DNA of 64,000 nucleotides from the NCBI GenBank assembly GCA_023920165.1, contig CP089276.1:1798001-1862000 (forward strand), written 5' to 3'. The DNA comes from Curvularia clavata. Lineage: Eukaryota. The translations under genes and the position numbers were made by a program. A model generated the notes under the pieces. The model was not told the DNA's origin and did no database searches. It saw nothing but the letters and a program-made list of their open reading frames with translations. Shown in pieces: positions 28,488 to 28,813 of this stretch (within the stretch, counting starts at the first letter, position 1; each line of letters opens with the position of its first letter).

Positions 28488-28813
28488 CATCCTGCAATAT
28501 GAAGGTCAGGTCACGAGCTACATCCTTACGACTTGCTAGGGTACGAATCCAGTCAGCGTTGATGATTAAACGCTGCGGTGCTGCTTTAAGGTGATAAGCG
28601 TCACCAATACACTAAGACTCCCAATATGCAAGGGGGTGAAATATGAGCTACTTTAAGACTAATATGTCTAAAAACAGAAACCTGCCCCTCAGGCTATGGC
28701 GACTGAAATCAGGAGAATTGACAGAGATTGGTAACCCAGAATGGAAGCCTTGACGGGTATTAGTAACCTAGAACAGAAAATGTAACGGACATGTTGGCAA
28801 ACAGCGCAGTTAC
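28488..28813 (+). repeat. Conserved non-coding 'arm' preceding truncated tRNA-Asp (copy A)
   Basis: CCAGTCA..GTT..., AAACGCTGC..TGCTGCTT, CACCAA..CACTAA, CAAGGG..TGA, GTAACC repeats; aligns by eye with 35664-35923 and 63680-63930. Confidence 0.85.

Follow-up and report, generated by a model that had tools for sequence, protein, structure and literature searches.

A same-strand array of non-coding arms joined to 5'-truncated tRNA-Asp copies behind an intact tRNA-Asp gene in Curvularia clavata: possible ends of serially integrated cargo elements

Why an intact nuclear tRNA-Asp gene of Curvularia clavata should be followed, on its own strand, by several truncated copies of itself, each directly preceded by a related stretch of non-coding DNA, was the question raised by this locus. 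The window (the whole 64-kb stretch of DNA that was analysed) contained one intact tRNA-Asp(GTC) gene and four downstream plus-strand modules, designated A, B, C, and D (Table 1), and in each module a non-coding arm, about 250 to 340 nt long but no more than 112 nt in B, ran directly into a tRNA-Asp copy that had lost its 5' end and began at tRNA position 12. The intact gene was the sole complete tRNA gene found in the window by ARAGORN and Rfam, and its sequence read as a 10-nt intron after position 37 and then a T-rich terminator. The modules closed four blocks of very different sizes: block A of 14.2 kb (module end 28896), block B of 4.2 kb (33110), block C of 2.9 kb (36008), and block D of at least 28 kb, the module of which ran past the window edge at 64000.

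Table 1. Positions of the intact tRNA-Asp gene, the four modules, and associated features in the window
Feature	Position	Strand	Basis and remarks
Intact tRNA-Asp(GTC) gene	14650..14731	+	ARAGORN; Rfam RF00005, 49.2 bits, model positions 1-71
Arm A (feature under study)	28477..28813	+	Local alignments to C and D; stops in six frames; no Rfam family
Tandem ~32-nt units in arm A	28699..28794	+	A0 28699 (weak), A1 28731, A2 28763; lag-32 autocorrelation 0.46
Truncated tRNA-Asp copy A	28814..28896	+	tRNA positions 12-72 plus discriminator base, 14-nt intron, T7; acceptor 5' strand missing
F-box/LRR gene in ~90-nt inverted repeats	30170..32794		Later insertion in block B; adjoins the missing distal arm B
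Arm B, proximal part only	32914..33025	+	Aligns to A 28702-28813 at 63%
Truncated tRNA-Asp copy B and T8 run	33026..33110	+	4/63 exon differences, including a 1-nt insertion
Arm C, one GTAAC unit at 35873	35650..35923	+	Local alignment, BLAST, pattern match
Truncated tRNA-Asp copy C and T9 run	35924..36008	+	2/62 exon differences, both C>T or G>A
Arm D, two units at 63864 and 63900	63686..~63932	+	Local alignment, pattern match
Truncated tRNA-Asp copy D	~63933..64000	+	Mutated heavily, mostly by transitions; ~30 nt missing at the junction; runs off the window

The modules were discrete. With arm extents taken from transition-tolerant local alignment, similarity fell from about 72% to none immediately to the left of A 28477, C 35650, and D 63686, and the right limit was the T-run. 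The upstream part of arm B had been replaced or interrupted by other repeats, and BLAST aligned 28777-28896 (A) with 32989-33109 (B) at 88%. The blocks were otherwise unrelated: self-BLAST returned arm/tRNA matches plus one 184-nt repeat (21710-21893 to 34684-34853) only, and the 800 nt after each tRNA shared mutual words of at most 14 nt, with no left ends common to the blocks. Since the blocks shared nothing beyond the module, the array was not a set of duplicated units. Terminal inverted repeats (TIRs) were absent when the arms were compared on both strands with the 800 nt after each tRNA, which gave 9-14-nt chance words; each block was flanked by a direct repeat of about 80 bp (tRNA positions 12-72 plus the T-run) that matched the target. 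A 19-mer from the tRNA 5' end and its upstream flank had a single occurrence in the 64 kb at up to 3 mismatches, and with a single tRNA 5' part facing four 3' parts the truncated copies were not halves of four split genes; the tRNA part had been brought along.

The two parts of the module differed strongly in divergence. Arms A, C, and D were 71-74% identical at ungapped sites, with transitions:transversions of 45:28 (A-C), 35:29 (A-D), and 33:21 (C-D), while the tRNA parts were identical at 71/76 positions between A and C (93%), 70/77 between A and B (91%), and 67/77 between B and C (87%); Fisher tests of arm versus tRNA-part divergence gave p=2e-5, 6e-4, and 9e-3. Judged by these sequences, fresh tRNA parts are attached to old arms, and the pairing of a long-diverged arm with a near-perfect tRNA piece points to ongoing exchange between the piece and live tRNA genes. 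Such exchange would be expected from recombination inside the tRNA segment, and gene conversion or selection on the piece would also yield it. Exon differences from the live gene numbered 0/62 in A, 2/62 in C, 4/63 in B, and 10/39 in exon 2 of D, the exon 1 of which was largely lost; copy A, nearest to the live gene, was pristine and D, the farthest, was the most decayed, with B and C out of order on small numbers. All truncated copies started at tRNA base A12, those of A, B, and C ended in a run of 7-9 T, and formation of the acceptor stem was impossible in all of them (only 3/7 pairs by reading of copy A). The intron had 10 nt in the live gene and was of a shared 14-nt type in A, B, and C. 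At 28843, within the intron of copy A (28840-28853; 14686-14695 in the live gene), most contigs of the three covering runs had A and copy A had G; no 4-nt deletion was listed at this intron site in the covering runs, and the 14-nt type may be the usual one in the genome.

The arm itself contained stops in all six frames in A, C, and D, and the open reading frames overlapping the arms had no Pfam family, which bore out the preliminary description of this DNA, made from its letters, as a non-coding arm abutting each truncated tRNA. The unit strings quoted there were all found in place, as 26-nt units at 28731-28756 (A1), 28763-28788 (A2), 35873-35898 (C), and 63864 and 63900-63925 (D), together with a decayed unit at 32975 (B). 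A1 and A2 were identical at 18/26 bases, and a possible partial fourth unit of arm A lay at 28795, overlapping the junction. Unit number did vary between copies, as had been claimed, with a periodicity that was significant in A only: lag 32 was the top of lags 8-60 over 28699-28826 of arm A (p=0.004 vs shuffles), the top lag of arm D was 36 (p=0.29, not significant), and arms B and C showed no internal period; the GTAAC unit is probably repeated in tandem in D as well. Tandem Repeats Finder, run on 28400-29000 with a minimum score of 30, returned 0 rows because the units were too diverged. With up to 3 mismatches allowed, the 26-nt degenerate unit was matched 4 times, always within an arm and on the plus strand, against 0 in 100 shuffles, a count that is circular because the pattern was derived from the same copies; the 11-mer head of the unit was not enriched in the window (14 matches vs 14.7 expected).

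The start of the proximal unit was placed exactly 51 nt before tRNA base A12 in 3/3 measurable copies (A, B, and C). The spacing CAGT-nnn-ATAGTGG, described previously as shared, was present in the intact tRNA, A, and C, with TAGT in B, and GTTAC was found at the junction of A and B only. The preliminary description had further likened the GTAACC units to arm-type and CAGT...ATAGTGG to core-type binding sites of a site-specific recombinase. An excess conservation of the GTAACC repeats was not seen across the four window copies: the orthologous proximal units had a mean identity of 65%, below the arm-wide 71-74%, the GTAAC head alone was invariant, and the distal arm blocks CCAGTCA and CGCTGC..TGCTGCTT were at least as well conserved as the units. 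The architecture of the locus fits a site-specific recombination site; the two classes of binding sites are putative and found no support in conservation, and no recombinase gene was found in the window.

The search for such a gene covered 236 reading frames from 1 to 64 kb (24 plus 9 of at least 150 aa, 68 of at least 55 aa near block borders, 125 of 70-149 aa elsewhere, and 10 re-run at E ≤5), and it returned no DUF3435, phage-integrase, transposase, or other recombinase, pseudogene fragments shorter than 55-70 aa being below its detection; the stretch of 12.8-64 kb with the array was thus without a recombinase gene. A captain was absent from 4/4 blocks in the same frames, so the enzyme would act in trans or have been lost. 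By Pfam, the window genes included HET domains, NACHT/NPHP3_N NLR-like genes, a CHAT-TPR protease, a PNP_UDP domain, and a patatin domain, and the window looks like that of a filamentous ascomycete. The cargo was of the kind carried by Starships: NLR-like and HET genes, a CHAT-TPR protease beside a gasdermin-like lead, a terpene synthase, and an mpaB-type oxygenase.

Several of these genes and the repeats around them deserve a description of their own. At 22848-27519, a 1193-aa TPR plus CHAT-protease ORF on the minus strand adjoined a divergently oriented 314-aa ORF on the plus strand (26575-27519), and the neighbour clusters of the latter in a protein atlas included one with a bacterial-gasdermin family in 13% of its members; the two ORFs may be a fungal protease/gasdermin cell-death pair. 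The 314-aa ORF was not recombinase-like, nor was the ORF at 59779-60696, the atlas matches of which were hypothetical ascomycete proteins only. The only gene of block C (33985-34660) was small, had two exons, and encoded an acidic protein rich in Cys and His that contained SDY repeats and belonged to no Pfam family. Block D contained, at 45278-48401, an mpaB/rubber-oxygenase-type gene beside a terpene synthase C-terminal domain, which may be a small terpenoid cluster. The insertion in block B comprised a single-copy F-box plus LRR gene (30733-32170) bracketed by the inverted repeats of about 90 nt, the outer ~45 nt of which were high-copy in three runs. Contig depth and loose ends marked its limits at 30170 and 32773, and the insertion resembles a gene held between TA-flanked MITE-type ends. 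The region 20653-21075 displayed 173-nt and 41-nt tandem duplications, and its ~20-fold contig depth in a same-organism run, with many joints, marked it as a high-copy repeat family. The regions 27874-28400 and 29208-30541, flanking arm A and filling block B, were many-fold over-represented in the runs of this and two other organisms, which identified them as other transposon families common to the species. The 184-nt repeat of blocks A and C was 73% identical between its two copies and high-copy in run X8.

The reading that we favour, at somewhat less than an even chance, is that the modules would mark the attR-like ends of elements or cassettes with cargo, which a site-specific recombinase working in trans would have inserted one after another at tRNA-Asp, with the tRNA rebuilt each time. 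The proposed steps are as follows: (i) a circular or excised element would carry an attP-like region consisting of the arm, tRNA positions ~12-72 with the intron, and the T-run; (ii) a recombinase, most likely a Starship-captain-type tyrosine recombinase acting in trans, would cross over with the chromosomal tRNA inside the common tRNA segment; (iii) the tRNA part of the element would rebuild a working gene on the left, the present intact gene being the attL-like end; (iv) the displaced chromosomal 3' part, minus the 5' acceptor strand, would end up behind the arm on the right; and (v) repeated integration into the rebuilt gene would stack elements in one orientation, the newest next to the tRNA, to give blocks A, B, C, and D. 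The ~32-nt GTAAC units and the other conserved arm blocks would be candidate protein-binding sites. The architecture, the discrete module, the contrast in age between arm and tRNA part, and the multi-copy status in several organisms are shown by the sequences, while the movement of the elements, its enzyme, the place of the crossover, and the binding of any protein are things that we infer here. In support of serial integration, the intact gene was located at the 5' end of the array and all four truncated copies were on the plus strand; further support came from the unrelated blocks, the discrete module, the age contrast, the decay of the truncated copies, the fixed 51-nt spacing, the multi-copy junction, and the Starship-like cargo. 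Counting against it were the lack of a recombinase in the window, of TIRs, of a conserved left end, and of any empty site, excision joint, or circular junction in the assembled contigs, units no better conserved than the arm, a period significant only in A, the position of B and C out of order in the decay gradient, and the absence of a tRNA-targeting element of this kind from the fungal literature searched.

The arm–tRNA junction is multi-copy in C. clavata and in two other organisms. At arm position 28806, an alternative base was found in 3 contigs of run X2 (same organism), 6 of X3, and 8 of X8, the latter two runs being labelled as two other organisms and the contigs being placed at ≥80% likeness. 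Within the same organism, the junction was present in at least 2 copies more. One X2 contig (74 nt on the shorter side) linked a B-like and an A-like unit through a 19-nt spacer, which implied at least one further genomic copy with two units, and one X8 contig, at 25 differences, tracked the arm of block B together with the repeat upstream of it (32745-33023). In the assembled contigs, neither an empty site nor an excision joint, a circular junction, or a bridging contig was seen. One other same-organism sample with the locus was identical over the single-copy parts; in runs X20-X23 (same species label), ~0.03-0.04 of the words of 27000-36900 were present, and run X20, the RNA or DNA kind of which was only guessed, had no cover over 13200-19202 or 21871-29207. 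A metagenome scan with the best-conserved arm word gave 61 loci, and BLAST of the four arms matched these only over 20-40 nt around the word; these matches are due to chance and are no relatives.

Presence of the module in several copies in three runs would also fit a different origin, which we regard as unlikely: the module (~0.35-0.43 kb) would be a small repeat, dispersed and non-autonomous, either MITE-like or the solo terminus of a transposon that had captured a tRNA-Asp fragment, and it would have landed several times in a repeat-rich region; the blocks would be ordinary host DNA, and the tRNA part would be kept fresh by gene conversion with genuine tRNA-Asp genes. The sharp limits of the module on both sides, its single conserved end, the absence of a recombinase, and the repeat-rich surroundings (bins 20537-21203, 27874-28540, and 29208-30541 at many-fold depth) are all in keeping with such a repeat. 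It accounts poorly for four copies within 50 kb in one orientation, for an intact same-strand tRNA-Asp at exactly the end that serial integration requires, and for module borders at which no target-site duplication was visible by eye. Moreover, the intron and T-run were kept, so the module was not RNA-derived, and its tRNA part was 3', not 5' as in known SINEs.

A local origin was given still less credence. tRNA genes pause replication forks, and local duplication or unequal crossing-over around tRNA-Asp, with no mobile element involved, might have been followed by turnover of the intervening DNA, the tRNA parts being kept alike by gene conversion from live tRNA-Asp genes. We consider this quite improbable. 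The same-strand tandem layout, a decay that roughly increases away from the live gene, and the lack of a recombinase in the window would all be compatible with it, but the blocks shared nothing beyond the module, so the duplication would have to predate a complete turnover that nevertheless spared a sharply bounded 300-nt arm. It is further opposed by the several copies of the junction in the runs of two other organisms, with at least 2 more in the same organism, and by the 10-nt intron of the live gene, the odd one out against the 14-nt type of A, B, and C.

Very unlikely, in our judgement, is an arm that functions as an ncRNA or regulatory region, in which the tRNA-like piece at the 3' end would act as a signal for processing or for Pol III/TFIIIC binding. 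Copies A and C had an intact A-box core (AGTGG) and an intact B box (GGTTCAATTCC), the T-run terminator was retained in A, B, and C, and conserved blocks persisted in the arm despite ~27% divergence, all of which such a function could explain. On the RNA side, however, Rfam found no family in the arms but a sub-threshold RF00005 match on the tRNA part of copy A (22.1 bits, gathering 29, model positions 5-66), the intact tRNA alone reaching gathering in the whole window; RNAalifold predicted 27 pairs from the three arms with 0 compensatory changes, a comparison of low power with three sequences. The acceptor stem cannot form, with 3/7 pairs in A, which makes RNase P-type processing unlikely, and the array layout would be left unexplained.

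Origins of several other kinds were rejected outright: (i) an LTR primer-binding-site or strong-stop read-through origin, given the intron, a genomic T-run and not CCA, and an arm on the wrong side of the tRNA sense strand; (ii) a Helitron 3' end, there being no CTRR-T end and the conserved end being that of the tRNA; (iii) a Hephaestus-type TTAC(N7)A site, A and B ending in TTAC with T and not A at +10, and C being without TTAC; and (iv) a Fanzor/TnpB guide-RNA end, no such ORF being present in the window.

Serial integration at tRNA-Asp would place the locus next to the tRNA-linked islands of bacteria. In both, an intact tRNA lies on one side and a direct, partial copy of its 3' part on the other, tandem arrays run in one orientation, and a non-coding arm of a few hundred bp adjoins the core; as in those islands, the element would carry part of the tRNA and rebuild the gene. 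The present locus differs from them in its nuclear fungal host and its tRNA with an intron, in a duplicated segment that takes in nearly all of the tRNA (everything from position 12 onwards, together with the Pol III terminator), and in having no integrase gene beside the att site.

Among fungal elements, the closest comparison was with Starships, the described parts of which are summarized here from portions of the sources. In the Hephaestus paper (Urquhart et al. 2023, PMC10104507), Starship ends are stated to carry target-homologous sequence and not duplicated target. Voyager, Enterprise, and Arwing Starships target 5S rDNA and have DUF3435 'captain' tyrosine recombinases (PMC11162782, PMC9156397). 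In the starfish study, 23% of 222 Starship insertion sites were in 5S rDNA, AT-rich sites being the other kind reported, and tRNAscan was used on the sites; direct repeats measured 6-16 bp in the 5S-targeting families, with disruption of the 5S gene, and 2-6 bp in many other Starships, and in the supplement 'tRNA' occurs at least 10 times, the place examined being cargo-gene annotation (PMC11162782). As far as these portions go, the locus resembles 5S-targeting Starships in its Pezizomycotina-type host, a Pol III target gene, variable NLR/HET-rich cargo, and target-homologous end repeats, and it departs from them in a repeat of ~80 bp, five or more times longer than the described 2-16 bp, and in a tRNA that is restored whereas the 5S gene is disrupted. 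It also has no captain in the frames searched and no TIR, and for want of both it was not filed as a Starship. Its mode of action would be that of a tRNA-targeting integrative element, and the locus may represent a relative without a captain.

Truncated Pol III genes joined to other DNA are found elsewhere in ascomycetes. Aspergillus nidulans 5S pseudogenes are joined to a common flanking block, and they share with the modules the fusion of truncated Pol III gene copies, at a fixed point, to a common non-genic block in several dispersed copies; the modules differ in the gene (tRNA-Asp), in the 5' truncation, and in forming one array behind a live gene. Truncated 5S rRNA pseudogenes make up 18-83% of the 5S copies in filamentous ascomycetes (Rooney & Ward 2005 as cited, in the part available, in PMC5555474). 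By analogy with the present locus, we infer that such pseudogenes may be linked to mobile-element ends.

Two further systems resemble the array in part. Foxy and Mg-SINE are tRNA-derived fungal SINEs, and like the module they are short repeats with a tRNA-derived piece, A-box/B-box remnants, and a T-run; unlike them, the module has its tRNA piece at the 3' end, 5'-truncated, with the intron kept and no A-rich tail, and its conservation lies upstream of the tRNA piece, with nothing common after the T-run. Integron arrays are built on attI and attC, and there too unrelated blocks follow a fixed site, all in one orientation, each ending in a copy of a structured recombination site; the smallest block here (C, 2.9 kb) carries one small gene. 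The present array has no integrase beside it, an arm plus tRNA part versus a folded attC, and a eukaryotic host, and the likeness to integrons is one of resemblance only.

The fullest form of the favoured reading is possible, if on the doubtful side. It holds that cassettes without a captain, ranging in size from 3 kb to more than 28 kb, would have been captured serially at a nuclear tRNA-Asp via a trans recombinase, as a eukaryotic counterpart of bacterial tRNA-linked islands and integron arrays; each cassette would bring an attP-like arm and its own tRNA 12-72, so that an essential Pol III gene would be rebuilt per insertion, and the family would span several fungal species, have a long history (arms ~27% diverged), and continue to exchange with live tRNA genes. 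If this reading is wrong, the module would still be an undescribed repeat family built around a tRNA fragment. If it is true, a fungus would use a nuclear tRNA gene as bacterial islands do, with the gene restored and the cargo stacked; no fungal element integrated in a tRNA gene was described in the literature searched (chiefly openly accessible). The arm plus tRNA-Asp from position 12 would then be a sequence signature for finding arrays in other fungi, and a recombination site of ~400 bp would be testable for tracing the enzyme. Serial capture at tRNA-Asp would also offer an explanation for how genes of immunity and allorecognition (NLR, HET, and a CHAT protease beside a gasdermin-like gene) build up at one locus.
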